Made by a program: the position numbers and the translations under genes | Notes under the pieces: model-generated | What the model was told of the DNA's origin: nothing | The model's database searches: none | What the model saw: only the letters and a program-made list of their open reading frames with translations | Part shown: positions 2,934 through 25,186 of the stretch, in pieces | How the letters are laid out: each line of letters begins with the position of its first letter | Numbering within the stretch: the stretch's first letter is position 1 | Source of the DNA: a phage | Assembly (NCBI GenBank): GCA_011884725.1 | Contig: GCA_011884725.1_3919.1 | Direction: 5' to 3' (one strand) | Length of the DNA stretch: 64,000 bases

Positions 2934-3338
2934 ATGACTATTAATAATCGTGAGTTGTCAATCTTAAAAGCACGTTTAACCGTTAATCGAATCAATGTTA
3001 TTACATCATCAGCACCGGATGAAACATTGCACAACATTATCGGAAAGATTCAAAGCGTTATCTTAGACGTTGAAAACGTAAAAAACTCATTGGCTGACGT
3101 TGCAGCAGGTATCACGCTAGACGGTGCACAATATGAAATGGCCGACATGTTAGGCAAATCTAAGGTAATGAATAAAGAGTTAGACTTGAAAATGTTTAGA
3201 TTTGCCGTGAAAGTGTGGCTATCTGTTGAGTATGATGCTAATTTTGCAATCGCTGATTTCTTTGCCACTTGGTTACAACGTAATTTGGCAAATCATGACT
3301 TTCGTGACATCTGCGACGCAATTTATGCAGAACTCTAA
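2934..3338 (+). CDS. hypothetical early protein
   Basis: 134-aa ORF behind module B. Confidence 0.7.
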   Translation: MTINNRELSILKARLTVNRINVITSSAPDETLHNIIGKIQSVILDVENVKNSLADVAAGITLDGAQYEMADMLGKSKVMNKELDLKMFRFAVKVWLSVEYDANFAIADFFATWLQRNLANHDFRDICDAIYAEL

Positions 3339-3346
3339 AAATTTTA

Positions 3347-3375
3347 TTGACACTGATTTTTAGATAGATTAAATT
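3347..3375 (+). promoter_or_regulatory. sigma70-like promoter (duplicate of 2483-2511)
   Basis: TTGACACTGATTTTTAGATAGATTAAATT. Confidence 0.55.
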
Positions 3376-3377
3376 AC

Positions 3378-3439
3378 ACATCAACGGGGAGGGAATGACC
3401 TTCCCCACTAAGTAAAGTCCTTAAACTAGGAGATTCAAA
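3378..3439 (+). repeat. leader module A copy 3
   Basis: Hairpin 3385-3405 plus RBS. Confidence 0.7.
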
Positions 3440-3637
3440 ATGGCTATTATCAACGGTTTAACCATTGAAACCACGCACATCAAAGACATTAAAGTTGGTG
3501 ATGTAGTTCTTTCCCACGGCGTAGAAAAAACAGTCACTGCAAAGGGTATCAAAGATGATTCTTTCATGGGTAGAACTCTCTTCGGTGATTCTTATTGCTT
3601 AGGTTATCTTGCAGTTTTAAAAGTTGTCAAAAATTAA
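3440..3637 (+). CDS. hypothetical early protein
   Basis: 65-aa ORF behind module A. Confidence 0.65.
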   Translation: MAIINGLTIETTHIKDIKVGDVVLSHGVEKTVTAKGIKDDSFMGRTLFGDSYCLGYLAVLKVVKN

Positions 3638-3639
3638 CT

Positions 3640-3730
3640 GATAAAGTACTTTACAAGGGGTTTATAGTTCGATAAAGTAAGCCCCAGATAAAGAGCTTTA
3701 CCACTAAATCCTTAAACTAGGAGATTCAAA
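3640..3730 (+). repeat. leader module B copy 4
   Basis: Hairpin GGGGTTTA..TAAGCCCC (3657-3685); a C-to-T change gives a G.U pair, consistent with an RNA stem. Confidence 0.7.
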
Positions 3731-4273
3731 ATGAAATGCTTTCACGGTACTACTCAAGAAAACTTTATCAACCTGATTAATAACGGTGATAAACCATCAG
3801 GTGTATGGAATTGTTCGGATATGGACGGCAATTTTTACGTGTACCCAGAAAATAAACTCTATGGTGATGATGAGGAAGAGATAGCATCGGAAGGTATCCA
3901 GCAAGCTCTAGGAAATGCCACTATCACGGCAGCTTTTCAGATGAAAACTCAAAATATTGTTATCTTAGAACTTGACATTCCAGAGGATGAGCTAAATGAT
4001 GATTATTCTTGTGATAACATGTCAAATATAGCAAGCTTTACAGAGTACTTTGATGTAAATTGGATTAAAAAGGTCTATACAACAGAGTTCAACGCTATGT
4101 ATTCACCTTTTTGTCTCCCTTCACTGGATAACCCAAATTTAAATTATCTTGATGAAACATTGGAGCTACTTGCTAAAAGTATCCAACAATCCGACAGTAT
4201 TCAGGTTTTTTGTGACATCATGGATACACTGACAGAAAACATTGTAGAGAGTGATTTAAAGGTCTTTTTCTAA
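3731..4273 (+). CDS. hypothetical early protein
   Basis: 180-aa ORF with conserved RBS. Confidence 0.7.
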   Translation: MKCFHGTTQENFINLINNGDKPSGVWNCSDMDGNFYVYPENKLYGDDEEEIASEGIQQALGNATITAAFQMKTQNIVILELDIPEDELNDDYSCDNMSNIASFTEYFDVNWIKKVYTTEFNAMYSPFCLPSLDNPNLNYLDETLELLAKSIQQSDSIQVFCDIMDTLTENIVESDLKVFF

Positions 4274-10354: not shown

Positions 10355-10569
10355 TTTTCAATCCCTCTCAATCGTTTGTTCCACTCAAGGTCAACAAGTC
10401 TTTGCAGGACTTTCCCTCTAGGTGTTACACCTTTTAAATCTGCATTGTAACAATGGTAAAAATCACCTTCAGTATGTCTACCATAGCATTTTCTGATGTT
10501 CTGACTTCTACGATACTGCTCTAATAGGGACAGTTTGTAGTAATCTTCAACTGTAGTTAGTTTTTTCAT
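10351..10569 (-). CDS. hypothetical protein
   Basis: 72-aa ORF, start/stop overlap with neighbour. Confidence 0.55.
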   Translation of the reverse strand: MKKLTTVEDYYKLSLLEQYRRSQNIRKCYGRHTEGDFYHCYNADLKGVTPRGKVLQRLVDLEWNKRLRGIEK

Positions 10570-10652
10570 TCTTTCACCACGTATCTTCTCAAGAAACTAA
10601 AAAGGGAACTACCTCTCGATAGCTCCCATCATAGTTAATGTTGTATATTCGG

Positions 10653-11234
10653 TCAAGAGTATTTTTTAGGCAGTAATGCACTGCGCTTATTGCTCTCTTC
10701 ACTCAATAGTGCGATAAATTCATCACCTTTACCCTTCCACGGGCTGAATGTCGGAATGTGCTCTCTGATAGCATCAATCACTGTTTTAAGGGCGTTGTTC
10801 TTTAACCACCAATCAGATACCGCTGAAGCTACAATGTAGTAAGCACCGTCATCTGTGAAGATTGGCTCAGAGATACATGGCGAAATCATAGTGGTAATGA
10901 TAGAACCATTATTCATGTAGTATGTTCTTTTTTCAACCTTATCAAGAAGCTTATGAAGGTCTGCAAAGAGACTCACCACCTCTTTATGGTCAATATCTTT
11001 TTCAAGATTTGCTCTATATTTCAATAGTGCAGCATCGACCTCTTTGTCATTGAATTTGAAGTATTGAACTTCTTCATTCACACATACACTGATGTTGTTG
11101 GTGTTTATCGTCAATTTGCACAGTTTGACTGGAGAGTTAATGTTGGTCTGAAAAAGTGCTACACAGCCTTCTACATTCCCGAAATGTTTGACTAATGTAA
11201 CTTCTGGTTGGATGTGCTCATGTTCTTCTGACAT
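10653..11234 (-). CDS. hypothetical protein
   Basis: 193-aa ORF. Confidence 0.65.
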   Translation of the reverse strand: MSEEHEHIQPEVTLVKHFGNVEGCVALFQTNINSPVKLCKLTINTNNISVCVNEEVQYFKFNDKEVDAALLKYRANLEKDIDHKEVVSLFADLHKLLDKVEKRTYYMNNGSIITTMISPCISEPIFTDDGAYYIVASAVSDWWLKNNALKTVIDAIREHIPTFSPWKGKGDEFIALLSEESNKRSALLPKKYS

Positions 11235-11578
11235 TATAGTTTCCTCATTAAATACTTTTTAAGTTGTGTGTTAGGTTTCTCAAAAACTTCTATAGAAGAT
11301 ATTTTGACAGATTCACCACGCATACCAGTATGTTTGAATATATAGTACTCTAACATCCCTATGTACTTTGCTGGTAAGTCATGCTTGACATACACCGTTA
11401 CAGAATCTTCAAATTCAACGACCTTTGTACCATCTTTGTAGTTAAACTCTTTAGGATGGTCGTAGTTATCGATATCGTACATTAAAAAGAGTCTTTTACG
11501 TTGTAAGTCAAGCTTATTTGTTAAAGACTCTTTGATATCTGAGAAGTTTTTGTACACTGTGACATGGAGCTTACTCAT
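11234..11578 (-). CDS. hypothetical protein
   Basis: 114-aa ORF, coupled to neighbours. Confidence 0.6.
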   Translation of the reverse strand: MSKLHVTVYKNFSDIKESLTNKLDLQRKRLFLMYDIDNYDHPKEFNYKDGTKVVEFEDSVTVYVKHDLPAKYIGMLEYYIFKHTGMRGESVKISSIEVFEKPNTQLKKYLMRKL

Positions 11579-16380: not shown

Positions 16381-17796
16381 ATGAGCGAATTATTTAAACA
16401 TGCGCACCTTCATGCAGGTCGAACTGAAAATGGTGCTGTAAACCATACTTCATCAATGTCTGCTCTTGTAGACTTTTACAAAGCTGCTGGTTCAAGCCGT
16501 AGCAATGTAGAAATCTTACCAGACCTGTTCTACAAAGCTTTGCGTGAGGATGTTGATGTTGCAGTTCGTATTTTACTGCATATGCGAGATGTACGAGAAG
16601 GTATGGGTGAGCGTAAAGCCTTCAGAACTGTTTTACTTCAAGCGATTGAAGACAAAGTTTTAGAGCCTACGCAGGTTCTTCGCATTATGGATAAGATTGC
16701 AGAACTTGGTCGTTTTGATGACTTCAAAATCTTTGTAGGTACTCGTTTCGAGACAGATGCCTTCAAGCATTTAGAAGCAGCATTACTAGACCCTGCAACA
16801 GCAGGTTTGGCAGCTAAGTGGTTACCACGAGTCAAACCACGTCATAAGCAGTTTGTAAAACGTTTCTGCAAGTTTGCCAACTTGAGCGAGAAAGAGTACC
16901 GCACACTGTTGTCTGCACTATCTGATACAGTTGAGCAAAAAATCTCTGCTAATGAGTTTGGTAAGATTGACTACAGTAAGATTCCTTCACTTGCTGCTGC
17001 ACGCTACCAAAAACTGTTTAACCGTAAAGATGGAGAGCGATACAAAGCTTACATCGAGTCCTTATCAAAGGGTGAGGCTAAGATTAATGCTGGTGCTGTT
17101 TACCCATACGATGTGATTAAATCTGTCAAGCATGGTAATGCAGATGTTGCTAATGAGCAGTGGAAAGCACTACCAAACTGGATGGCAGAAGGTGAAAACA
17201 TCTTGTGTATGTCTGATGTATCAAGTTCAATGTCTTGGGTGAATTTTGGCTCCATTACTGCTCTGGATATTGGTGTATCACTTGCCTTGTATGTAGCAGA
17301 ACGCAATACAGGCTGCTTTAAGAATGAGTTGATGGTTTATTCAACAAACCCTCACTTCATCGAACTGAGTGGTGATTTACGAAACCGTCATCGTCAGGTG
17401 ATGCGACACGTTGAATATGGCTCAACTAACTTACAAGCAGCTTTTGACCGCATTCTTGAAACAGGTAAAAGAAACAACTTGACTCAGAAAGATATGCCAA
17501 GTAAGCTTATCATCTTCTCCGATATGGAGTTCAATCAGGTTGATGGAGCTAACGGTCGTACAAACTTTGAAGCAATTCAGAGTAAGTACAAAAAAGCTGG
17601 ATATGAGATGCCACAACTGGTATTCTGGTACTTAGCAAACCGTAATGGTACTTGCGAAGTGTCTGTTAAGGATAACGGTGTAGCAATGGTATCTGGTTTC
17701 TCTCCAGCCACTTTAAAAGCTCTGCTTGGTGGTGAGAAGTTTGACCCAATCAGCGTAATGCTCAAAGCAGTAATGATTGACCGTTATATCTGGTAA
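16381..17796 (+). CDS. vWA-domain protein with helical N-domain (possible TROVE/Ro60-like architecture)
   Basis: 471 aa; C-terminal vWA with MIDAS-like DVSSSMS (DxSxS) and downstream T and D positions (IIFSDMEF); helical N-domain of about 270 aa; sits directly upstream of the tRNA array. Confidence 0.7.
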   Translation: MSELFKHAHLHAGRTENGAVNHTSSMSALVDFYKAAGSSRSNVEILPDLFYKALREDVDVAVRILLHMRDVREGMGERKAFRTVLLQAIEDKVLEPTQVLRIMDKIAELGRFDDFKIFVGTRFETDAFKHLEAALLDPATAGLAAKWLPRVKPRHKQFVKRFCKFANLSEKEYRTLLSALSDTVEQKISANEFGKIDYSKIPSLAAARYQKLFNRKDGERYKAYIESLSKGEAKINAGAVYPYDVIKSVKHGNADVANEQWKALPNWMAEGENILCMSDVSSSMSWVNFGSITALDIGVSLALYVAERNTGCFKNELMVYSTNPHFIELSGDLRNRHRQVMRHVEYGSTNLQAAFDRILETGKRNNLTQKDMPSKLIIFSDMEFNQVDGANGRTNFEAIQSKYKKAGYEMPQLVFWYLANRNGTCEVSVKDNGVAMVSGFSPATLKALLGGEKFDPISVMLKAVMIDRYIW

Positions 17797-17814
17797 AAAG
17801 TTTTAAAAAGGGTA

Positions 17815-17843
17815 TTGACAATGTGTTTAATACCCTTTAATAT
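17815..17843 (+). promoter_or_regulatory. promoter of tRNA array
   Basis: TTGACA (17815-17820), 17-nt spacer, TAATAT (17838-17843); a second TTGACA lies at 17906. Confidence 0.6.
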
Positions 17844-17961
17844 GTTCTACATAGAAACGAAATGAGAGCTTTTCTAAGATACTGAAAAATATTTTAAAAA
17901 AGTTCTTGACAACCACTAAAAAATAATGTTAAAGTGGTTACATAGAGTTTGAAAAGTTTAT

Positions 17962-18038
17962 CTCTGTTTAGCTCAGCTTGGTAGAGCGTTCCGTTTGGGG
18001 CGGTAAGGCCGGAGGTTCAAGTCCTCCAACAGAGACCA
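17962..18038 (+). tRNA. tRNA-Pro (anticodon TGG)
   Basis: 7-bp acceptor CTCTGTT/AACAGAG, T-arm GGAGGTTCAAGTCCTCC, anticodon loop TTTGGGG, encoded CCA. Confidence 0.75.
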
Positions 18039-18045
18039 AATTAAT

Positions 18046-18123
18046 GTTCCAGTAGACAAAATGGTAAAGTCACCACTCTTTCAAAGTGGATATCTGAGGG
18101 TTCAAATCCCTTCTGGAACGCCA
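18046..18123 (+). tRNA. tRNA-Glu (anticodon TTC)
   Basis: Acceptor GTTCCAG/CTGGAAC, anticodon stem CCACT/AGTGG, loop CTTTCAA, T-loop TTCAAAT, CCA. Confidence 0.75.
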
Positions 18124-18126
18124 GTT

Positions 18127-18205
18127 TTGACAGAAGACCAATTACAGCAAACTTAATCTTATTCATCTGAAGGTAAATCGGACAAAGAAGAGATTTGGTC
18201 TGGTC
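18127..18205 (+). ncRNA. inter-tRNA structured element E1
   Basis: CAGAAGACC-box, helix AGACCAA (18135-18141) / TTGGTCT (18195-18201), TTACAGCAAA box inside. Confidence 0.5.
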
Positions 18206-18214
18206 ATTAAGAAT

Positions 18215-18291
18215 TGCGGGTATAGAGAAAGGGCGTCTCACATGTCTCATTAGCATGGTATCGGCAGGTTCGACTCCTGCACCCGCCTCCA
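18215..18291 (+). tRNA. tRNA-Met-like (anticodon CAT) with 1:72 mismatch
   Basis: Anticodon stem CATGT/GCATG, loop CTCATTA, T-arm GCAGGTTCGACTCCTGC, 3' ACCCGCC-T-CCA; 5' end TGCGGGT leaves position 1 unpaired. Confidence 0.6.
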
Positions 18292-18294
18292 AAT

Positions 18295-18365
18295 TTACAG
18301 AAGACCGTTTACAGCAAAATTGAATGAAATTTTTAGCGGAAAAATTGAAAGATACGGTCTGGTAA
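18295..18365 (+). ncRNA. inter-tRNA structured element E2
   Basis: Helix AGACCGT (18302-18308) / ACGGTCT (18354-18360); compensatory to E1; TTACAGCAAAA box. Confidence 0.5.
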
Positions 18366-18375
18366 TACTAAACAT

Positions 18376-18449
18376 GGTTAGGAAGCACATAAGGTATGTG
18401 CGGTCGCCTGTTAAGCGAATGGCACAGGGTTCGAATCCCTGACTAACCG
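18376..18449 (+). tRNA. tRNA-Asn (anticodon GTT)
   Basis: Acceptor GGTTAGG, D-stem GCAC/GTGC, anticodon loop CTGTTAA, T-arm CAGGGTTCGAATCCCTG; no encoded CCA. Confidence 0.65.
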
Positions 18450-18461
18450 CAAAATTGAAAT

Positions 18462-18549
18462 GTGTCGTTATCCCGTAGATGGTAGCGGTGGGGACTGTAA
18501 ATCCCTTGTCATTGAGACTCGGTAGGTTCGACTCCTACACGGCACACCA
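18462..18549 (+). tRNA. tRNA-Tyr (anticodon GTA), long variable arm
   Basis: Acceptor GTGTCGT/ACGGCAC, anticodon loop CTGTAAA, long variable arm, T-arm GTAGGTTCGACTCCTAC, CCA. Confidence 0.7.
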
Positions 18550-18554
18550 ATAAA

Positions 18555-18631
18555 GGCTATGTAGTTTAACTGGAGAAAATACTCCCCTGTCACGGGAGAT
18601 GATGTGAGTTCAAGTCTCATCGTAGCCGCCA
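18555..18631 (+). tRNA. tRNA-Asp (anticodon GTC)
   Basis: Acceptor GGCTATG/CGTAGCC, anticodon stem CTCCC/GGGAG, loop CTGTCAC, T-loop TTCAAGT, CCA. Confidence 0.75.
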
Positions 18632-18685
18632 AATTATAATAAGTATTTCAAAATGATGTTTTGAGAGGGCTATTTAGCCCCTCCC

Positions 18686-18716
18686 TTAAAGAGTTCTTAC
18701 GAGTATTCTTTAAAGG
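18686..18716 (+). ncRNA. hairpin with conserved TTCTTACGAG loop, copy 1
   Basis: TTAAAGAGTTCTTACGAGTATTCTTTAAAGG; second copy at 22027-22056 has a different but still complementary stem. Confidence 0.45.
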
Positions 18717-18795
18717 AGCAGAAGACCAAATACAGCAAGAATGTATGATATTTTCAAGCCAATCCAATTTTGAAAAAATTTAAAACTTGGTCTGG
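18717..18795 (+). ncRNA. inter-tRNA structured element E3
   Basis: CAGAAGACC box, helix AGACCAA (18723-18729) / TTGGTCT (18787-18793), ATACAGCAAG box. Confidence 0.5.
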
Positions 18796-18804
18796 CTCAA
18801 CAAA

Positions 18805-18939
18805 TTTACAGAAGACCGTTTACAGCAAAACTTAAACAATCTATTTCTCGGTAAAGAAAAGGCGAAGGTTCGATTCCTTCACTCGGCAGATGTCGAGTTG
18901 GTGTAATGGTAGCACTTAAGATGATAAACAACGGTCTGG
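18805..18939 (+). ncRNA. element E4 enclosing a tRNA-like module
   Basis: Helix AGACCGTT (18813-18820) / AACGGTCT (18930-18937); inside: T-arm GAAGGTTCGATTCCTTC, hairpin ACTCGGC-AGAT-GTCGAGT, D-arm-like GTGTAATGGTAGCAC. The order is 3'-half before 5'-half. Confidence 0.45.
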
Positions 18940-18940
18940 T

Positions 18941-19084
18941 AATTATCTTTGTAGATAAGTTATTAAGCTTACCTGTGAGTATGCGACCACAAAGGGTGAA
19001 AGGGTAAATTCTAGATTTAAACCCAAAAAGGCACATCGCTACAGACCTTAAGCAAGTCTGGGTAGCTTATCTACAAAGATAATT
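18941..19084 (+). ncRNA. structured RNA closed by a 19-bp perfect helix
   Basis: AATTATCTTTGTAGATAAG (18941-18959) is the exact reverse complement of CTTATCTACAAAGATAATT (19066-19084); inner hairpins include CAGAC/GTCTG. Confidence 0.5.
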
Positions 19085-19088
19085 TAAT

Positions 19089-19164
19089 GGAAGTGTAGCA
19101 GAATGGTGATGCGGCAGACTTTTAATCTGACAGGCGATGGGTTCGAATCCCTCCACTTCTACCA
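19089..19164 (+). tRNA. tRNA-Lys (anticodon TTT)
   Basis: Acceptor GGAAGTG/CACTTCT (G1.U72), anticodon loop CTTTTAA, T-loop TTCGAAT (weak T-stem), CCA. Confidence 0.65.
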
Positions 19165-19168
19165 ATAT

Positions 19169-19245
19169 GGTTCAGTCGCAGATAAGGTAATGCAAGGGTC
19201 TCATAAGCCCTATGAATGTGGGTTCGATTCCCATCTGAACCTCCA
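19169..19245 (+). tRNA. tRNA with CAT anticodon (elongator Met or Ile2-type)
   Basis: Acceptor GGTTCAG/CTGAACC fully paired, anticodon stem AGGGT/GCCCT, loop CTCATAA, T-loop TTCGATT, CCA. Confidence 0.65.
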
Positions 19246-19246
19246 A

Positions 19247-19322
19247 GCTGGTATAGTTAAGAAGGTTATAACACTCCCCTGATAAGGGAACATCGGTGGT
19301 TCGATTCCACCTACCAGTACCA
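19247..19322 (+). tRNA. tRNA-Ile (anticodon GAT)
   Basis: Acceptor GCTGGTA/TACCAGT, anticodon loop CTGATAA, T-arm GGTGGTTCGATTCCACC, CCA. Confidence 0.7.
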
Positions 19323-19337
19323 ATTTCAATAAAGTTG

Positions 19338-19366
19338 TTGACATTGAGATGTGACTACTTTATAGT
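19338..19366 (+). promoter_or_regulatory. internal promoter within tRNA array
   Basis: TTGACA (19338-19343), 17-nt spacer, TATAGT (19361-19366). Confidence 0.6.
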
Positions 19367-19568
19367 AACCTTAGTTTTCGTTGCGTAGCGTCTATTTTGC
19401 AAATTTAAAATAAATGCAAACGACAATGTTTTTCTGGCAGTAGCTTGATAGGCTAAACACCAGTGAGGTCTTCCAATCCCTCATCAAAGAATTTGGCGTA
19501 CTCGCCCACGGTATGATTAATAAGGTGGGCATCTTTAAGGGCTTTCTAAGAGAGTCTTTAAAGATAAT

Positions 19569-19645
19569 GCACCCTTAGTTCAATTGGATAGAGCAACGGT
19601 CTTCTAAATCGTTAGTTACAGGTTCGAATCCTGTAGGGTGTACCA
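19569..19645 (+). tRNA. tRNA-Arg (anticodon TCT)
   Basis: Acceptor GCACCCT/AGGGTGT, D-arm TAGTTCAATTGGATAGAGC, anticodon loop CTTCTAA, T-loop TTCGAAT, CCA. Confidence 0.75.
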
Positions 19646-19787
19646 AATAGTTAGCAGATTACTTAGACGGCCTTAGCGGGTCTTCCTGTAGGGAGGTGGT
19701 CTGTATCTCATGTTTTCCAGAACATGTAAATAATCTGAGAAGAAGCTTGACAGTGTTGAGATAACAGGGTAAGCTTCGAATTATAAT

Positions 19788-19870
19788 ATGGGACGATGTT
19801 AAGACTCTAAGGCATGAGCAACGGCCTCCAAAACCGTTTCAAAGGGGTTCAACTCCTCCGTCCCATGCCA
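19788..19870 (+). tRNA. atypical tRNA (anticodon probably CCA, Trp?)
   Basis: Acceptor ATGGGAC/GTCCCAT, T-loop TTCAACT, CCA; anticodon stem AACGG/CCGTT encloses 9 nt (CCTCCAAAA); D region is 4-8 nt longer than usual. Confidence 0.45.
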
Positions 19871-19883
19871 AAGTCTTATTAGG

Positions 19884-19971
19884 GGTAGGTAGCGGCTAAT
19901 GGTAGCCAAACTGTCTTGAAAACAGTTGCCACTGTAGAGATACGGTGAGGGTTCGACTCCTTTACTTACCG
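19884..19971 (+). tRNA. tRNA-Ser (anticodon TGA), long variable arm
   Basis: Acceptor GGTAGGT/ACTTACC, anticodon stem ACTGT/ACAGT, loop CTTGAAA, long variable arm, T-loop TTCGACT. Confidence 0.65.
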
Positions 19972-20126
19972 CCTAATAAGATTTACTCCGTCCATGCTTG
20001 TTCGCATTGTCGGTTTATCCCTCGTGTATTGTCGTACACTGTCAAAGCACCTAGTAGGTGTCACGGAGAAGAGATAATATCAAGCTCTCCAAAGGTTCTA
20101 GTCACCGGATTAAACAAGACTATGCA

Positions 20127-20151
20127 AAGACCTATTTAGGTCTTTTTAGAG
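20127..20151 (+). terminator. intrinsic terminator inside tRNA array
   Basis: AAAGACC-TATTTA-GGTCTTT followed by TTTAG. Confidence 0.5.
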
Positions 20152-20227
20152 GGCTTCTAAGGTTATTAGTCGCTTGTTGTGGAACCTTGTTGCTTAGGTT
20201 CTTAGAAGTTCTCTAAAAAGATTTAAT

Positions 20228-20305
20228 GGGAGATTGACGGTAATTGGTAAACCTACCATCCTTAGAAGTTGGTGTTTGAGGGTTCGAATCCCTTGTCTCC
20301 TACCA
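20228..20305 (+). tRNA. tRNA, class I shape, anticodon TAG (Leu?)
   Basis: Acceptor GGGAGAT/GTCTCCT, anticodon loop CTTAGAA, 5-nt variable loop, T-loop TTCGAAT, A73, CCA. Confidence 0.5.
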
Positions 20306-20312
20306 AATTAAT

Positions 20313-20388
20313 GCAGGTGTAGCAAAATGGTTATGCGGCTGACTCTTAATCAGTAAGACGATGGGTTCAATTCCCTCCACCTGTACCA
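20313..20388 (+). tRNA. tRNA-Lys (anticodon CTT)
   Basis: Acceptor GCAGGTG/CACCTGT, anticodon stem GCTGA/TCAGT, loop CTCTTAA, T-loop TTCAATT, CCA. Confidence 0.6.
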
Positions 20389-20394
20389 AACATT

Positions 20395-20470
20395 GGGGAT
20401 GTAGTTTACATGGTTAAAACATAAGTTTTGCAAACTTAAGTACAGGGTTCAATTCCCTGCTTCTCCACCA
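20395..20470 (+). tRNA. tRNA-Cys (anticodon GCA)
   Basis: Anticodon stem AAGTT/AACTT, loop TTGCAAA, T-arm CAGGGTTCAATTCCCTG, CCA. Confidence 0.65.
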
Positions 20471-20476
20471 ATTAGT

Positions 20477-20551
20477 GCATCCATAGTTTAAACGGGAAAA
20501 TTACAGTCTTCCAAACTGAGGTTGAGGGTTCGATTCCCTCTGGATGCTCCA
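20477..20551 (+). tRNA. tRNA-Gly (anticodon TCC)
   Basis: Acceptor GCATCCA/TGGATGC, anticodon loop CTTCCAA, T-loop TTCGATT, CCA. Confidence 0.65.
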
Positions 20552-20557
20552 AACAAT

Positions 20558-20634
20558 GCTGCTTTCGTATAATTGGCTATTACACATCCCTTGTAAGGAT
20601 GGAAATGCAGGTTCGAGTCCTGTGAGCAGCACCA
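20558..20634 (+). tRNA. tRNA-Thr (anticodon TGT)
   Basis: Acceptor GCTGCTT/GAGCAGC, anticodon stem CATCC/GGATG, loop CTTGTAA, T-loop TTCGAGT, CCA. Confidence 0.7.
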
Positions 20635-20635
20635 A

Positions 20636-20730
20636 TTCAGAGGTCAAGTGAAAGACCGCTTTGAGTCAACTGAAGACCGTAACAAATACCACGGAGTTGA
20701 GTTAGCGGCACAACTTCAGACCTCTTTCAT
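20636..20730 (+). ncRNA. structured spacer element between tRNA-Thr and tRNA-Val
   Basis: Closing helix CAGAGGTC (20638-20645) / GACCTCTT (20722-20729); contains a GAAGACCGT box as in E2/E4; no T-loop. Confidence 0.4.
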
Positions 20731-20805
20731 ACTCGCTTAGTTTATATGGTAAAACATCACCCTTACAAGATGAAGAAAAAGGTTCAAGTCCTTTAGTGAG
20801 TACCA
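20731..20805 (+). tRNA. tRNA-Val (anticodon TAC)
   Basis: Acceptor ACTCGCT/AGTGAGT, anticodon loop CTTACAA, T-arm AAAGGTTCAAGTCCTTT, CCA. Confidence 0.6.
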
Positions 20806-20806
20806 T

Positions 20807-20884
20807 GTTCCAGTATCCCAATTGGCAGAGGATGCAAGCTCAAACCTTGTATTAGTGACGGTTCGAATCCGTCTTGGAACACCA
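20807..20884 (+). tRNA. tRNA, class I shape, anticodon CAA (Leu?)
   Basis: Acceptor GTTCCAG/TTGGAAC, anticodon stem GCAAG/CTTGT, loop CTCAAAC, T-arm GACGGTTCGAATCCGTC, A73, CCA. Confidence 0.5.
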
Positions 20885-20889
20885 ATTTT

Positions 20890-20965
20890 GCAGGATTAGT
20901 TCAAATGGAAAGAGCAACAGTCTACGAAGCTGTTAATAGGGGTTCGAATCCCTTATCCTGCGCCA
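20890..20965 (+). tRNA. tRNA-Arg (anticodon ACG)
   Basis: Acceptor GCAGGAT/ATCCTGC, D-stem GTTC/GAGC, anticodon stem ACAGT/GCTGT, loop CTACGAA, T-loop TTCGAAT, CCA. Confidence 0.75.
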
Positions 20966-20982
20966 GATAAAAAGGTGATACT

Positions 20983-21225
20983 ATGCAAACATTAACAGTA
21001 GTTGAACATGAAAACTGTGAGAGTATTGAGTTTGTCAGGGTCATTGGTGTTGAACACCACATTTTCTTAAAAGTGGGATACTTATGTGACCCCGCTAGAG
21101 TAGAAAGATTTATACGTGATTGTTTTGGTGGTAGACATCTGAAGAGTGTTATTTTTGAGACAGTTTTACCAGAAGGTTTAGAAACGAATAATAACATTTA
21201 CCTCCTTACGAGGATTAGACAATGA
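20983..21225 (+). CDS. hypothetical protein embedded in tRNA array
   Basis: 80-aa ORF; RBS AAAGGTGA 7 nt upstream of ATG. Confidence 0.5.
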   Translation: MQTLTVVEHENCESIEFVRVIGVEHHIFLKVGYLCDPARVERFIRDCFGGRHLKSVIFETVLPEGLETNNNIYLLTRIRQ

Positions 21226-21779
21226 GATACTTAAAGTATGCTTCATGGATTTTCTTAGCTTTGTTAGAGCCATTTGCAGCAATCTTAGCAGTTATCTTAG
21301 CACCTTTTGTAGTTCCATTCTACAGTGAGAAGAAAGGACACTTACCTTTCGGGTTCAGATGGATGGAGACATATGACAACCCAATTGATGGTGATGAAGG
21401 TCACGTTAAAAGATGGGCTAATATTAGATGGATTGGTAAACTAGGTGTCTACATGCAAAGAGTCGGATGGCTCTGGAGAAACAAAGCTTATAACTTCTCT
21501 TACCATGTATTAGGAAGAGATGTAAGAGATGTTACTAAGTGGAAAGGTAATATCAACGTAAGTTCTAACCCTGAAGATAATCAGACTGGTTATCTCCTAA
21601 TGTGGAACAGTAATGCTTGGGGATTATTCGCTTTTATCCCATCAATTAAAGTCTTCGGTAAACAGTTTTACTGGAGAATTTATGTTGGATGGAAACTTAA
21701 AAGTGTTGTCCCAGAAGAAAGAGCATTCTCAAGGGAAAGAGTTATGTTGGCATTCTTTATTCATCCACTGAGAAAGTAA
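21222..21779 (+). CDS. hypothetical membrane protein embedded in tRNA array
   Basis: 185 aa; N-terminal TM segment (WIFLALLEPFAAILAVILAPFVVPF); start overlaps previous stop; RBS GAGGA. Confidence 0.6.
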   Translation: MRYLKYASWIFLALLEPFAAILAVILAPFVVPFYSEKKGHLPFGFRWMETYDNPIDGDEGHVKRWANIRWIGKLGVYMQRVGWLWRNKAYNFSYHVLGRDVRDVTKWKGNINVSSNPEDNQTGYLLMWNSNAWGLFAFIPSIKVFGKQFYWRIYVGWKLKSVVPEERAFSRERVMLAFFIHPLRK

Positions 21780-21787
21780 AGATTTAA

Positions 21788-21863
21788 AGGGGATTAGTTT
21801 ACAAGGTTAAAACCTCGGTCTTTGAAATCGAAGAAGTTGGTTCAATTCCAACATCCCCCGCCA
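21788..21863 (+). tRNA. tRNA-Gln (anticodon TTG)
   Basis: Anticodon stem TCGGT/ATCGA, loop CTTTGAA, T-arm GTTGGTTCAATTCCAAC, 3' ATCCCCC-G-CCA; position 1 (A) unpaired with C72. Confidence 0.6.
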
Positions 21864-21865
21864 AT

Positions 21866-21944
21866 GCTCCATTACTCCAATTGGCAGAGAGGCCAGACTT
21901 AAAATCTGTGTTATGTATCGGTTCGAATCCGATATGGAGTACCA
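21866..21944 (+). tRNA. tRNA, class I shape, anticodon TAA (Leu?)
   Basis: Acceptor GCTCCAT/ATGGAGT, anticodon loop CTTAAAA, T-arm ATCGGTTCGAATCCGAT, A73, CCA. Confidence 0.5.
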
Positions 21945-21949
21945 AATTT

Positions 21950-22025
21950 AGCGGTATAGCATAACTGGCAATGCAGCAGTCTCTGAAGCTGTCCTATTAA
22001 GGTTCAAATCCTTATGCCGCTGCCA
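21950..22025 (+). tRNA. tRNA-Gln (anticodon CTG)
   Basis: Acceptor AGCGGTA/TGCCGCT, D-stem GCAT/ATGC, anticodon stem GCAGT/GCTGT, loop CTCTGAA, T-loop TTCAAAT, CCA. Confidence 0.6.
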
Positions 22026-22026
22026 C

Positions 22027-22056
22027 TTCTAAGGATTCTTACGAGAGTCCTTAAAT
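22027..22056 (+). ncRNA. hairpin with conserved TTCTTACGAG loop, copy 2
   Basis: TTCTAAGGATTCTTACGAGAGTCCTTAAATG; stem TAAGGATTC/GAGTCCTTA. Confidence 0.45.
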
Positions 22057-22132
22057 GTGGCCTTATCATAAATGGTAATGACCCATGCTGTGAACATGGT
22101 CTATACGGGTTCAAATCCCGTAGGTCACCCCA
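22057..22132 (+). tRNA. tRNA-His (anticodon GTG)
   Basis: Acceptor GTGGCCT/AGGTCAC, anticodon stem CCATG/CATGG, loop CTGTGAA, T-arm ACGGGTTCAAATCCCGT, CCA. Confidence 0.7.
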
Positions 22133-22138
22133 ATTTAT

Positions 22139-22214
22139 AGTCCAAGTAGCTTATATGGTTAAAGCGCGTGTCTGAAAAACATGAGAAGAGGGTTCAAATC
22201 CCACTGGACTACCA
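22139..22214 (+). tRNA. tRNA-Phe (anticodon GAA)
   Basis: Acceptor AGTCCAA/CTGGACT, anticodon stem CGTGT/ACATG, loop CTGAAAA, T-loop TTCAAAT (short T-stem), CCA. Confidence 0.6.
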
Positions 22215-22230
22215 ATTTCAAAGGTGCTTA

Positions 22231-22965
22231 ATGAAAGAGATGACAGAACAAGGTAAGGAGATTTTCAATCTCTTAAAAACCGGTAAAGGGTTTTCTAACC
22301 CCCTTATTACTGGTGCAGCAGTTCTCGGTGGAACCGTAGCTGCCTCTACATCACTTGTAAGCTCTATTAGCTCTGTATCAGACCCTACAGTAAAGGATAA
22401 GCTTGTTGCTGCTGGACTTACAACAGTTCTGCTTAACAGCTTTACCACGAGTCTGACAAGCACTACATCAACTACCAAAACACTAACAGATTACGGTCAA
22501 AAGTCCATTGATGAGTTTTCATCACGTATGCAGGTAGCAAAAGGTTACTCTAATGTTATGGGTGCAGCAGGTGAACAAGTTGGCTGTACACCATTTAGTG
22601 GTATTATGGGTGTTGCTACAGAGTATGGTCAAAAAACTATTGATACGATTAACAGTGTACTAGATAGTGTTAATGGTGTGTTAAGTGACTTACAAGATGC
22701 TATTGACAAAGGTCTTGATACTATTTCTGATTTAGCTGAGCAAGCTGTTAGTAAGATTAATGAAGGTATTTCAAAAATTACAGCTTATGCAGATGAAGTT
22801 GTGCAGATGATTGAAGAAGAAGCTGCTCTTATTGCAGAGTACCTTAAAACGAATATCAATGGGTTCTTAGCAGGTATCTTACCAGACTGGTTTGATGATG
22901 CTTGTAAAACTGGTGTAATTGACACTATTGCAACACCAGAAATGAAGAACGCATTACAGAAATAA
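22231..22965 (+). CDS. hypothetical protein (Ser/Thr-rich N-half, helical C-half)
   Basis: Listed ORF starts at 22168 inside tRNA-Phe; in-frame ATG at 22231 with RBS AAAGG chosen. Confidence 0.55.
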   Translation: MKEMTEQGKEIFNLLKTGKGFSNPLITGAAVLGGTVAASTSLVSSISSVSDPTVKDKLVAAGLTTVLLNSFTTSLTSTTSTTKTLTDYGQKSIDEFSSRMQVAKGYSNVMGAAGEQVGCTPFSGIMGVATEYGQKTIDTINSVLDSVNGVLSDLQDAIDKGLDTISDLAEQAVSKINEGISKITAYADEVVQMIEEEAALIAEYLKTNINGFLAGILPDWFDDACKTGVIDTIATPEMKNALQK

Positions 22966-22967
22966 AT

Positions 22968-23060
22968 GGAAGATTAACCCTAAAAGGTAAGGGAGCAGTT
23001 TGCTAAACTGCCAGTAGCTGAGAAATCGGTGTACCAGTTCAAGTCTGGTATCTTCCTCCA
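22968..23060 (+). tRNA. tRNA-Ser (anticodon GCT), long variable arm
   Basis: Acceptor GGAAGAT/ATCTTCC, D-stem CCC/GGG, anticodon stem GCAGT/ACTGC, loop TTGCTAA, long variable arm, T-arm ACCAGTTCAAGTCTGGT, CCA. Confidence 0.7.
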
Positions 23061-23064
23061 ATTT

Positions 23065-23140
23065 GAATCCGTGACAGAAACGGCTATGTGCCTGTCTGCA
23101 AAACAGGTTTATAAGGGTTCGAGTCCCTTCGGATTCTCCA
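23065..23140 (+). tRNA. tRNA with GCA anticodon (second Cys-like)
   Basis: Acceptor GAATCCG/CGGATTC, anticodon stem CCTGT/ACAGG, loop CTGCAAA, T-arm AAGGGTTCGAGTCCCTT, CCA; atypical D-arm. Confidence 0.5.
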
Positions 23141-23177
23141 AGTTATTTTACTCTCTCTCAATTAAAATAATAATAAT

Positions 23178-23237
23178 GCCCTGCTATAAGTATTCTTCCT
23201 TTCGCTACCGAAGAGTATTTTTAGACAGGGCTTTTTT
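23178..23237 (+). terminator. terminator after tRNA array
   Basis: GCCCTG .. CAGGGC followed by TTTTTT. Confidence 0.5.
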
Positions 23238-23303
23238 ACAGAGTTATACTTTATAGGAAGACTTATACAGTATGTCTCTGACGTACATTGTGGTTTCTCC
23301 TTG

Positions 23304-23331
23304 ACGGTCTCTGTGCCGTCTTTTTTAAGGG
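23304..23331 (+). terminator. intrinsic terminator
   Basis: GACGG-TCTCTGTG-CCGTC followed by TTTTTT. Confidence 0.55.
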
Positions 23332-23362
23332 GAAACATGATTAACTATTTGGAGAAAACATA

Positions 23363-23563
23363 ATGAGCGAGACCGTTTATAAAGAACTTTATGAAGCTAA
23401 TAAAAAGCTAGAATTTATGCAGAATACTATCATGGCAATTGCAGACAGATTGTCTGTAGCAACAGGTATTGATATTAAAGAAGCATCTATGGATGCACTT
23501 CTTGATGCTGTTGATGCAAAGTTCGAAGTTAAGAAAGAAGAGACTGCTACAGACTCTGAATAA
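23363..23563 (+). CDS. hypothetical small protein upstream of terminase
   Basis: 66-aa acidic ORF with RBS GGAGAAAACATAATG. Confidence 0.5.
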   Translation: MSETVYKELYEANKKLEFMQNTIMAIADRLSVATGIDIKEASMDALLDAVDAKFEVKKEETATDSE

Positions 23564-23584
23564 TTCTATTTGCGGAGGTGCTTA

Positions 23585-25186
23585 ATGGACTTAAATGCTG
23601 TTAAGCAGAAGCGAGTGGAAGATGTTAGGAAAGTCCTAGCTGGAGAGTTGGGGCTTTCTGATGAAGTAAAAGAAATTATTAAATCATTCGGTAAAGACCC
23701 CTCTAAATTCCTTCCAACTCAAATTCTGACTTTATTAAGATACACACCAGACCAAGTTCGCCTTATCTTTAAATTGATGACTGATAAGAATTATGTAGCC
23801 CCTCAGCCGGGTTCTCAAGAGGTCTTTTTAAATACTAATGCTGACTTGGTTCTCTATGGTGGTGCTGCGGGTGCTGGTAAGACTGCTGCATTGTTAATGG
23901 ACTCTTTAAGGTTTATTGATGACCCTAATTATAATGCTGTATATTTCCGTCGAAATACAACACAGCTACAAGGTGGTTTGTGGCCTGCTGCAAAGAAACT
24001 ATTTGGTAAGTTTGGTGGGGTTCCTCACGAGCAGAAGATGACTATCACATTCCCTTCTGGGGCAACTATCAAGTTTACCTATCTAGAGCTTGAAAAGCAC
24101 GCTGAAGGTCATCAGGGTATTGAGTATTCAGCTATTTACTTTGACGAAGGTACTCACTTCTCTGCTTCACAGATTTCATACCTACAGACTCGTCTACGTT
24201 CTGGGGCTGAAGGTGATTCATACATGAAGATTTCTATGAACCCAGACAGAGACCACTTTATTTACGATTGGGTAGAACCATTCTTAGATGAAGAAGGTTA
24301 CCCAGACCCTGAAAAGTGTGGTCGTATTCGTTGGTATGTAATGAATGATGGTGTTATGGTTTCTGATTGGGAGAGAGACAAGATTCTTGAAATGTTTCCT
24401 CTTGAGATTCCTCAAACATATACATTCATCTCTGGTACGATTGATGATAACCCAATTCTTGACTTCTTAGAACCTAAATATCGTGGTAAGTTGGAAAACA
24501 ACACCCCTGTAAACGTTGCAAGACTTCGTTTCGGTAACTGGAAGGCTCGTGCAGAAGGTTCAAACTATTGGCAAAGACAATGGTGTGAAATTGTTGATTC
24601 ACTCCCAGAAGATGTATTCGATGTCAGAGCATGGGACTTAGCAGCAACTTTACCATCTGAGATTAACCCTAACCCAGACTGGACAGCAGGTGTTAAGATG
24701 GGTAAATCTAAAAAAGACGGTTGCTATTATATCATTGATGTAGTAAGATTTAGAGATAGACCCTCTGGAGTCGAAACACAAATTAATTTGACTGCTGAAA
24801 GTGACGGTAAGCGAACTGGTATTTTTATCCCTCAAGACCCAGGCGCTGCTGGTAAATCCTACGCAACATCCCTCATCAGGAAACTTGCCGAGAAAGGTTA
24901 TCGAGCAAGAGCTAAACCAACAAATAAAGACAAAGTTACCCGATTTGCGGGGTTTTCTGCTGCTTCTGAAGCTGGACTTGTAAAAGTCTTGAGAGGTAGT
25001 TGGAACGAAGCTTACTTTCAAGAACTTGAAGGTTTTTGTGGTGATGGTAAAACTAAAGATGACCAAGTGGATGCTACCAGTGATGCTTTCAACAGTCTTA
25101 ACGAAGTTAAATTATTCAAGCCACCATCAATGGGTGCTCACACAGACTTAGTGAGAGGAAACCCATATGAGGGGCTTAGACGTTGA
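23585..25186 (+). CDS. terminase large subunit
   Basis: Walker A LVLYGGAAGAGKT, ATPase and nuclease-domain acidic residues; ATG at 23585 follows RBS GGAGG. Confidence 0.9.
   Translation: MDLNAVKQKRVEDVRKVLAGELGLSDEVKEIIKSFGKDPSKFLPTQILTLLRYTPDQVRLIFKLMTDKNYVAPQPGSQEVFLNTNADLVLYGGAAGAGKTAALLMDSLRFIDDPNYNAVYFRRNTTQLQGGLWPAAKKLFGKFGGVPHEQKMTITFPSGATIKFTYLELEKHAEGHQGIEYSAIYFDEGTHFSASQISYLQTRLRSGAEGDSYMKISMNPDRDHFIYDWVEPFLDEEGYPDPEKCGRIRWYVMNDGVMVSDWERDKILEMFPLEIPQTYTFISGTIDDNPILDFLEPKYRGKLENNTPVNVARLRFGNWKARAEGSNYWQRQWCEIVDSLPEDVFDVRAWDLAATLPSEINPNPDWTAGVKMGKSKKDGCYYIIDVVRFRDRPSGVETQINLTAESDGKRTGIFIPQDPGAAGKSYATSLIRKLAEKGYRARAKPTNKDKVTRFAGFSAASEAGLVKVLRGSWNEAYFQELEGFCGDGKTKDDQVDATSDAFNSLNEVKLFKPPSMGAHTDLVRGNPYEGLRR

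Follow-up and report, generated by a model that had tools for sequence, protein, structure and literature searches.

A tmRNA-like phage RNA with a 5′ domain antisense to host tmRNA in the tRNA array of a Felix O1-type phage

The 64,000-nucleotide (nt) stretch of DNA analysed here (contig GCA_011884725.1_3919.1 of GenBank assembly GCA_011884725.1; the window) belongs to a Felix O1-type myophage of the genus Felixounavirus, and four stretches of its long tRNA array that are not tRNA are considered here. The first of these holds a predicted promoter at 19338–19366, and the segment that follows this promoter is a transfer-messenger RNA (tmRNA)-like RNA family with covariation. The family, its structure, the constraint on its tag reading frame and the complementarity of its 5′ end to host tmRNA are established here; this tmRNA-derived phage RNA is widespread and essentially undescribed. 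From the sequence we infer that it may dock on host tmRNA and either block or replace the tag template of the latter.

The array comprises 26 tRNAs on the + strand, at 17962–23140 (ARAGORN, window), and an Rfam search at gathering thresholds turns up only tRNAs within it. The region under study has matches in 277 phage records, and its identity to Salmonella phage SeKF_63 is 98.8%. Coordinates of all features are collected in Table 1.

The tmRNA-like RNA family

A covariance model built on 35 variants (R1) recognises one copy of the RNA in the window, with a score of 141 bits (E 4e-29), and exactly one copy per genome. The RNA also gives sub-threshold matches to the Rfam tmRNA models in a low-stringency scan, to tmRNA_permuted at 29.2 bits and to tmRNA at 15.7 bits in the window, and to tmRNA_permuted at 21.7–23.4 bits in three other lineages; the gathering score of 47 bits (RF00023 and RF04321) is not reached in the window or in these three lineages. 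The matches arise because the sequence AAAAUAAAU-GCA AAC GAC AAU... at the start of the tag frame fits the consensus around the resume codon, seen as AAAAUAAAUGCAAACGACAAUGUUU in the alignment to Rfam tmRNA. The frame itself runs from 19416 to 19445, reads ANDNVFLAVA and is followed by two stop codons.

Compensatory changes are found in all four helices of the two pseudoknots among 70 distinct variants. In pseudoknot a, S1 occurs as UGAGG/CCUCA, CAAGG/CCUUG, CGAGG/CCUCG and CAGGG/CCCUG, and S2 as CCAA/UUGG, CCGA/UCGG and CCAG/CUGG. In pseudoknot b, which has the conserved loop GAUUAAUAA, S1 occurs as CGUACU/GGUAUG, CGCACU/GGUGUG, CAGACU/AGUCUG and CGCAGU/GCUGUG, and S2 as GCCCAC/GUGGGC, GGCGGGAG/CUCCCGCC and GCCCUGA/UCAGGGC. 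Of the cells in the covariance-model alignment, 91.1% are paired. Covariation scores 0.208, compared with 0.127 ± 0.006 in shuffles (none of 500 reaches it) and a maximum of 0.16 with slid partners; one lineage is mis-registered in this alignment, which lowers both the pairing and the covariation figures. Helix 5 of the alignment, which lies in pseudoknot b, is 100% paired and has two double-change pairs. The sequence of the helix-5-like hairpin that precedes the pseudoknots was partly fixed by the search pattern, and its invariance is not evidence.

The tag frame carries a coding constraint. Single-nucleotide codon differences within it are 185 synonymous to 257 nonsynonymous, compared with 44:296 and 78:213 in the other two frames. 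All 14 of its tag variants, with GCA-to-GCT and AAC-to-AAT changes among them, conform to AN[DE]xx[FY]LAVA, of which the search pattern had fixed the LAVA codons. Conventional coding was rejected on both strands: a minus-strand open reading frame (ORF) of 46 amino acids, annotated in relatives, is interrupted by stop codons when the homologous frame is read in other lineages, and on the + strand the tag frame opens at GCA, with no start codon.

A BLAST search of a phage collection with the segment finds homologues in 629 phage records, at 70–81% identity over 95–125 nt in unrelated phages, and nearly all of these loci have no annotation beneath the match. The phages concerned are Ounavirinae, Erwinia Kolesnikvirus, Ackermannviridae, Carvajevirus, 46-kb Klebsiella siphophages, N4-like phages and one lambdoid phage. 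A pattern scan of viral contigs gives 120 loci, four of which are chance matches, and adds contigs of 100–115 kb. The corresponding scan of bacterial genome contigs gives 70 matches, about the chance expectation; three are real, all on Enterobacteriaceae contigs.

Transcription of the RNA would start from the promoter at 19338–19366, which the original prediction had called strong. The site matches the consensus at 11 of 12 positions and is the best one in a promoter scan of 17000–24000, a region in which promoter-like sites as a class are not enriched (17 found, 16.1 expected). It is kept in Felixounavirus and Mooglevirus relatives, and the Felix O1 genome paper had already predicted the same promoter as P45, directly after tRNA-Ile. 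We conclude that this sequence-based assignment is credible. The predicted start is at about 19372–19374, and tRNA-Arg(TCT) begins at 19569, which agrees with the some 200 nt of non-tRNA sequence originally described between promoter and tRNA. Two other phage lineages have independent sigma70-type promoters at an equal distance from the 5′ end of the tmRNA-like RNA, and the promoters of the three lineages place that end at UAGUUUUCG, immediately before the antisense domain.

The surroundings of the RNA differ among lineages. In the 100–115-kb contigs (L006 at about 10500–11300, L007 and L015), which are possibly T5-like, the element forms the 5′ part of a structured non-coding region of ∼650 nt, with several long-range helices, that extends to tRNA-Asn; tRNA-Asn/Tyr/Thr lie downstream. 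In 46-kb siphophage contigs (L003 at 1620–1700, L024, L049 and others) tRNA-like elements flank it; their acceptor is constant (GGUAAGAGCAUUG ... CAGUGCUCUUUCC), they have a T-arm, and the sequence directly after their 5′ acceptor strand varies between near-identical phages. Salmonella phage SKML-39 (L005, 1268–1326) has, immediately ahead of the promoter for its tmRNA-like RNA, a tRNA-like gene with acceptor stem, D-arm, T-arm and a stunted anticodon arm, for which ARAGORN makes no call. In Klebsiella phage Zahir (L004, 2896–3110) the Rfam small RNA STnc100 is found at 51.6 bits, above gathering, 1.3 kb from the tmRNA-like RNA.

Table 1. Positions in the window of the features discussed in the text.
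Feature	Position	Strand	Description
Predicted sigma70-type promoter	19338–19366	+	TTGACA (19338–19343), 17-nt spacer, TATAGT (19361–19366)
tmRNA-like RNA without tRNA-like domain	19372–19541	+	Whole element by covariance model R1
5′ antisense domain	19372–19401	+	Complementary to E. coli tmRNA
Leader, resume codon, tag frame	19407–19451	+	A-rich leader AAAAUAAAU, GCA (19416–19418), stops TGA TAG (19446–19451)
Helix-5-like hairpin	19434–19463	+	CUGG..UAGC/GCUA..CCAG, stop codons in loop
Pseudoknot a	19464–19496	+	S1 UGAGG (19464–19468)/CCUCA (19479–19483); S2 CCAA (19473–19476)/UUGG (19493–19496)
Pseudoknot b	19497–19530	+	S1 CGUACU (19497–19502)/GGUAUG (19510–19515); S2 GCCCAC (19504–19509)/GUGGGC (19525–19530)
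Leader hairpin UAAGGGCUUUCUAAGAGAGUCUUUA and AAGAUAAU leader before tRNA-Arg(TCT)	19536–19568	+	−10.2 kcal/mol, z −3.2
Structured spacer with AGAC/GUCU helix	19646–19747	+	z −1.8, weak evidence; resembles upstream stem modules
Second promoter-like site	19748–19776	+	TTGACA (19748–19753), 17-nt spacer, TAAGCT (19771–19776); poor −10
Putative deviant tRNA-Trp(CCA), 82 nt	19789–19870	+	A1-U72, G73, anticodon 19828–19830, enlarged D region
Conserved trailer RNA after tRNA-Ser(TGA)	20040–20151	+	Ends in terminator-like hairpin
Terminator-like hairpin	20126–20145 + UU	+	8-bp stem AAAGACCU/AGGUCUUU, A/U-rich
Long leader hairpin before tRNA-Leu(TAG)	20153–20227	+	CUUCUAAG/CUUAGAAG; one compensatory change (UGCUGAG/CUUAGCA)
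95-nt conserved hairpin	20635–20730	+	Between tRNA-Thr and tRNA-Val; two degenerate module 5′ boxes (GAAAGACCGCUUUGAGUCAA, CUGAAGACCGUAACAAAUAC)
Ro60-fold gene (DUF2828+DUF7788)	16381–17796	+	Immediately upstream of modules
Four paralogous stem modules	18127–18210, 18294–18368, 18715–18800, 18805–18942	+	
Non-tRNA stretches under study	19323–19568, 19646–19883, 19974–20227, 20635–20730		

Complementarity to host tmRNA and competing explanations

Across the family, the first ∼30 nt of the RNA are antisense to nt ∼68–107 of E. coli tmRNA, a stretch that spans the 3′ strand of pseudoknot 1 (PK1), the leader, the resume codon (nt 90–92) and codons 1–6 of the host tag. In the window, 19372–19383 pair with nt 95–106, 19388–19390 with nt 89–91 and 19392–19400 with nt 77–87, and the duplex is predicted at −27.1 kcal/mol (RNAduplex). 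A search of E. coli ssrA with R1 gives a minus-strand match to model positions 1–35 (UAGUUUUCGUC--GUUUGCGACU). All duplex tests used 30-nt windows, full-length RNAduplex having been dropped as it forces global pairing. The optimal duplex falls within nt 60–112 of tmRNA for 25 of 29 distinct 5′ domains, drawn from all lineages; not one of 232 shuffles gives this result, nor does any of 159 tests on three windows of equal length from elsewhere in these RNAs (0 of 53 per window). Mean duplex energy is −28.4 compared with −21.9 kcal/mol. The blocks GUUUUCGU and GCGACU, which are shared across lineages, complement the host letters ACGAAAAC and AGUCGC, which do not occur in the phage tag regions. 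The 5′ domain has a conserved seed complementary to a defined target site, as trans-acting antisense small RNAs (sRNAs) do; in the minimum free energy (MFE) fold part of this seed is paired internally.

The explanation that we consider best as a whole, and hold tentatively at somewhat short of an even chance, is that of a promoter-driven tmRNA derivative that would anneal to host tmRNA and swap its tag template. The promoter at 19338 would drive an RNA of ∼170–200 nt, from 19372 to about 19541/19568, the 3′ end of which would be set by RNase P cleavage at 19569, at tRNA-Arg. In this derivative an antisense 5′ end of ∼30 nt would replace the tRNA-like domain and PK1. Annealing over the PK1 3′ strand, the leader and the first codons would hide the host tag template, and the phage leader, resume codon and tag would be presented beside the host tRNA-like domain and SmpB, giving a hybrid two-piece tmRNA, such that rescued ribosomes would append AANDNVFLAVA instead of AANDENYALAA. 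Annealing in vivo, use of the template and any consequence are what we infer from these features. We favour template replacement over mere blocking of the host template because the coding constraint and the retained leader, stop codons and pseudoknots are otherwise unexplained. That the complete virus–host hybrid operates, docking on the PK1/resume region, providing a substitute frame and having rescue write the AANDNVFLAVA tag, seems to us somewhat unlikely.

Several observations weigh against template replacement by annealing. The z-scores of individual duplexes are modest (−1.3 to −3.7), and four of the 29 variants map outside nt 60–112 of tmRNA. Prediction for the free RNA folds the 5′ domain on to its own leader and tag start, so that the complementarity could in part be an internal helix inherited with the tmRNA-like tag. 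The host tmRNA used was that of E. coli only, the same region in Salmonella and other hosts being assumed identical, and the invariance of CUGGCAGUAGC (LAVA) and of ACACCAG is partly a product of the search pattern. The ∼650-nt context in the 100–115-kb contigs hints at additional or different functions. To our knowledge, moreover, the only precedent for a ribosome that resumes on a duplex-held template lies in the natural two-piece tmRNAs.

The same complementarity, in 25 of 29 variants, would be expected of a pure anti-tmRNA, whose 5′ domain anneals and shuts down tagging or rescue, and whose tmRNA-like body is never translated and merely stabilises the RNA or competes for tmRNA-binding proteins (SmpB tail, S1, RNase R). 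Trans-acting sRNAs typically carry their seed at the 5′ end, and the RNA has no tRNA-like domain, both in keeping with such a role; the synonymous excess in the tag frame, however, is left unexplained by it, as are the kept resume codon, leader and in-loop stop codons, and we judge it unlikely. More improbable is a self-contained RNA that makes no contact with host tmRNA, its 5′ domain pairing with its own leader and tag start, and that acts as a decoy, sponge or regulator on a protein or ribosome state. The MFE fold does pair nt 8–28 with nt 35–57 of the same RNA (z −4.3). Most lineages nevertheless fit the host much better (−23 to −35 kcal/mol) than the start of their own tag (−15 to −22 kcal/mol), and the conserved GUUUUCGU and GCGACU match host-specific letters (GAAAAC, AGUCGC) that phage tag regions lack.

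A genuine permuted two-piece tmRNA, with its tRNA-like domain elsewhere in the array, is what ARAGORN reports for Felix O1 and Moogle, and genome announcements cite an 'ssrA' in both phages; the Rfam tmRNA_permuted match points the same way, as does an ARAGORN permuted call, with the tag ANDNVFLAVA, in one relative (L114). That call, however, spans 750 nt and engulfs three bona fide tRNAs, and such a spurious call accounts for the passing claims of 'ssrA'. ARAGORN finds no tmRNA in the window and is silent in 119 of the 120 family loci. No acceptor piece lies just upstream in one transcript, as it would in a two-piece tmRNA: the T-arm used by Rfam is part of a normal tRNA-Ile (62.3 bits), and the promoter stands between this T-arm and the tag. 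From the promoter to tRNA-Arg nothing resembles an acceptor stem or T-arm, an acceptor with G3-U70 was not found, and some phages that have the element lack any tRNA within 1 kb of it. We consider this reading very unlikely. The least probable is that the segments are ordinary spacers, leaders and trailers removed in tRNA processing, with the promoter and terminator only tuning tRNA dosage. All elements are indeed flanked by tRNAs and would be released by RNase P and 3′ processing, and the weak terminator has no promoter after it; against this, 19372–19541 is conserved across families, with covariation, and the 95-nt hairpin and 20040–20151 are near-invariant over three genera, next to spacer sequence that is hypervariable.

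Transcription units and other RNAs of the array

The 'spacers' of this phage tRNA array are gene-dense. The original prediction of additional small RNAs of unknown function has strong comparative support as regards the small RNAs, and not as regards their unknown kind, the tmRNA-like RNA and a putative deviant tRNA-Trp being among them. The latter, judged from sequence, appears to be hidden in the segment between tRNA-Arg and tRNA-Ser, behind the second promoter-like site; counted in, it would bring the array to 27 tRNAs. ARAGORN is negative on 19789–19870 and Rfam gives only tRNA-Sec, at 23 bits. The anticodon stem covaries (AACGG/CCGUU, GUAAG/CUUAC), and one relative, L091, has a canonical tRNA-Trp in the same slot. 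The TTGACA/TTTACA and GGTAAGCTT of the second promoter-like site are kept in relatives, including before the canonical tRNA-Trp of L091.

The stretch 19974–20227 consists of a hypervariable hairpin, an invariant block of ∼110 nt and a long leader hairpin. The block, 20040–20151, is invariant over three genera, and the 70 nt that precede it are hypervariable. Of the palindromes described in 19975–20150, CACCTAGTAGGTG occurs at 20050–20062 and does not vary among relatives. CTCCGT and ACGGAG can likewise pair in this genome, but the 5′ arm is part of the hypervariable stretch and is replaced in relatives, and the pairing was rejected as a conserved one. The 'clear terminator' placed at 20127–20151 proves to be a hairpin conserved across three genera, but not a clear terminator. 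Its stem has only three G-C pairs and a predicted energy of −8.7 to −9.4 kcal/mol (z −1.1), there are just two U behind the complete stem, and a terminator scan does not list it among its sites; Table 2 of the Felix O1 genome paper likewise has no terminator inside the tRNA array. The promoter scan finds no promoter-like site between this hairpin and the next eight tRNAs, which makes a strict unit boundary doubtful, and with the terminator also weak, read-through or processing is at least as likely as a hard boundary. Division of the array into several transcription units has only partial support, from the credible promoter at 19338, and is weakened by what lies at and beyond the hairpin.

A recurrent leader, AAAGAU(A/U)AUUUAAUG, precedes the first tRNA after each long spacer (19072–19088, 19557–19568 and 20213–20227), in two cases with a GGGCUU(U)CUAAG hairpin before it, and may be a processing signal. 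A GGGCUUCUAAG hairpin similar to that before tRNA-Arg(TCT) stands before tRNA-Leu. In Mooglevirus and Suspvirus relatives (L126 at 3281–3410, L127 and L114) an extra element of ∼120 nt follows tRNA-Arg; it has a long internal insert in addition to a T-arm and an acceptor stem (GGUCAAG/CUUGACU-G-CCA). The tRNA content also differs among relatives, tRNA-Arg(TCT) or tRNA-Arg(ACG) being missing or replaced in some, and HNH homing-endonuclease genes occupy differing points of the array (L001 1256–1777, L126 4027–4479, L091 about 3460–3860).

Between tRNA-Thr and tRNA-Val, the predicted 95-nt structured element with a box (20636–20730) folds as one long irregular hairpin (−30 kcal/mol, z −4.0; none of 200 shuffles is as good) that carries GAAGACCGT at 20672–20680. 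It is nearly invariant in Felixounavirus, Mooglevirus and Suspvirus, and absent from Kolesnikvirus, which has a 7-nt spacer, and from Yersinia phage P778; its changes comprise two that are wobble-compatible and two disruptive ones in one genome. The box has five exact copies in the window, four of them in the tRNA region, and 18 matches with at most one mismatch, compared with 7.7 expected. One copy (19596–19604, − strand) is the reverse complement of the tRNA-Arg(TCT) anticodon stem-loop (ACGGUCUUC), and RNAs with the box are therefore formally antisense to that arm. A tRNA remnant and a canonical stem module of the kind described next were both rejected as identities for the element (no T-arm, no 3′ strand, no compensatory double changes). 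Of the module features it has two degenerate 5′ boxes, and neither the 3′ GGUCUG strand nor the WTWCAGCAA box. It may be a derived, degenerate relative of these Y-RNA-like modules.

The four stem modules lie downstream of a gene (16381–17796) whose product is a homologue of Bas63 gp130. Modelled with an alignment (AlphaFold, pLDDT 87), this protein comprises a TROVE ring and a vWA domain, and the twelve best fold matches of the model in the PDB are all Ro60/TROVE proteins; protein and profile sequence searches of the PDB gave no Ro60, which only the fold search found, and a single-sequence model (pLDDT 44) was discarded. Behind the gene is a 12-bp hairpin (17807–17838) that corresponds to the Felix O1 bidirectional terminators t42/t43; it shares sequence with a TTGACA promoter hexamer, and a further TTGACA promoter-like site is present at 17906–17935.

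The modules share the design [outer helix]-AGA-AG(A/G)CCNN-(U/A)UACAGCAA ... NNGGUCU-G-[outer helix], with an invariant AGA/G loop, AGACC/GGUCU helix and UUACAGCAA box. Outer and inner helices covary between paralogues and genomes (UGAC/GUCA, UUAC/GUAA, UUGC/GCAA and GAGC/GCUC; CCAA/UUGG and CCGU/ACGG), single-sided changes in them are G-U compatible, and the loops between helices are variable. A K-turn reading of the AGA/G loop was rejected by eye, there being no GA on the non-bulged strand. In the MFE fold of 18802–18945, three hairpins lie inside the fourth module: a T-arm, a closed acceptor and a D-arm. On this modelled structure the module would hold a permuted tRNA-like domain, as in YrlA.

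Bacterial Y RNAs such as YrlA and YrlB occur with Ro60/Rsr (PMC4201824). The modules resemble them in a long closing stem with a conserved motif and in their position, at most 1.2 kb from a Ro60-fold gene and on its strand, inside the 4 kb typical of Y RNAs, and one copy may do so in its predicted tRNA-like enclosure; the 95-nt element lies 2.8 kb downstream of that gene. In contrast to YrlA, their motif is AGA / AGACC-GGUCU / (U/A)UACAGCAA and not GNCGAAN0-1G / GGUCCGA, the Rfam YrlA model RF02553 gives no match at the module sites even at E up to 10, and the phage protein is DUF2828/DUF7788, not Pfam TROVE. In distant phages a DUF2828 gene is again found beside a tRNA array, and in two of them, Yersinia phage P778 (L201, 7092–7894) and a 143-kb phage (L203, 6441–7130), modules built alike come after it; these also carry the WUWCAGCAA box, and several contain predicted tRNA-like domains. 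R1 is not found beside these DUF2828 genes, which indicates that the tmRNA-like and module RNA families are independent. Bas63 gp130 alone is sufficient against Ppl in T7, and the PhageMaP authors only guessed at Y RNAs for it; the modules are concrete candidates for the partner RNAs of this anti-Ppl protein.

Comparison with known tmRNAs and wider meaning

The phage RNA shares with bacterial tmRNA (ssrA, RF00023) an A-rich leader and GCA resume codon, a gammaproteobacterial-type tag of ∼10 codons (ANDxx[YF]...), a helix-5-like hairpin whose loop holds the stop codons, and consecutive H-type pseudoknots after the tag. It differs in having neither tRNA-like domain nor PK1, in its length of ∼170 nt, in a 5′ end that is antisense to tmRNA, in a tag that ends in LAVA and not ALAA, and in scoring below the Rfam gathering threshold. 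The two-piece tmRNAs of alpha-proteobacteria, cyanobacteria and others (RF04321), in which the coding piece is held to the acceptor piece by base pairing only, are the sole precedent for a tag template that is not covalently joined to the charged 3′ end. There both pieces come from one gene and are joined through the acceptor stem and helix 2, whereas the proposed partner of the phage RNA is an intact host tmRNA, and the proposed site is its tag region.

A 2014 census of tmRNAs lists phage ssrA genes only in mycobacteriophages (Bxz1 group) and Bacillus phage G, with none in enterobacterial phages, and describes in mycobacteriophage DS6A a fragment consisting of the tRNA-like domain only, suggested to inhibit trans-translation (PMC4131195). 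Like these, the present family is a phage gene derived from ssrA, and like that of DS6A it is a partial tmRNA kept by a phage; it keeps the opposite half, however, and adds an antisense domain. Literature searches on T5 stable RNAs, phage tmRNA-like RNAs and Felixounavirus transcriptomes found nothing relevant. Small stable RNAs that are co-transcribed with tRNAs and freed by tRNA processing enzymes are exemplified by the T4 species 1 and 2 RNAs and by E. coli 3′ETS-leuZ; the RNAs of the phage array would resemble them as small RNAs within tRNA transcripts, and we know of no report of likeness or antisense complementarity to tmRNA for any of them.

Trans-translation is the main bacterial path of ribosome rescue, and phages depend on it or suffer from it; we know of no phage factor that rewrites it. 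Besides a candidate tRNA-Trp that ARAGORN and Rfam miss and a family of putative Y-like RNAs associated with a Ro60-fold gene, the array spacers hold a widespread, unannotated phage RNA that joins an anti-tmRNA seed with its own tag template. If the proposed exchange of templates is real, it would be a new mode of host takeover, in which rescue would re-route or spare the rescued proteins, and the RNA would be a natural trans-acting tag template, useful as a tool. Trans-translation would then be a target of takeover across many lineages of Enterobacterales phages.

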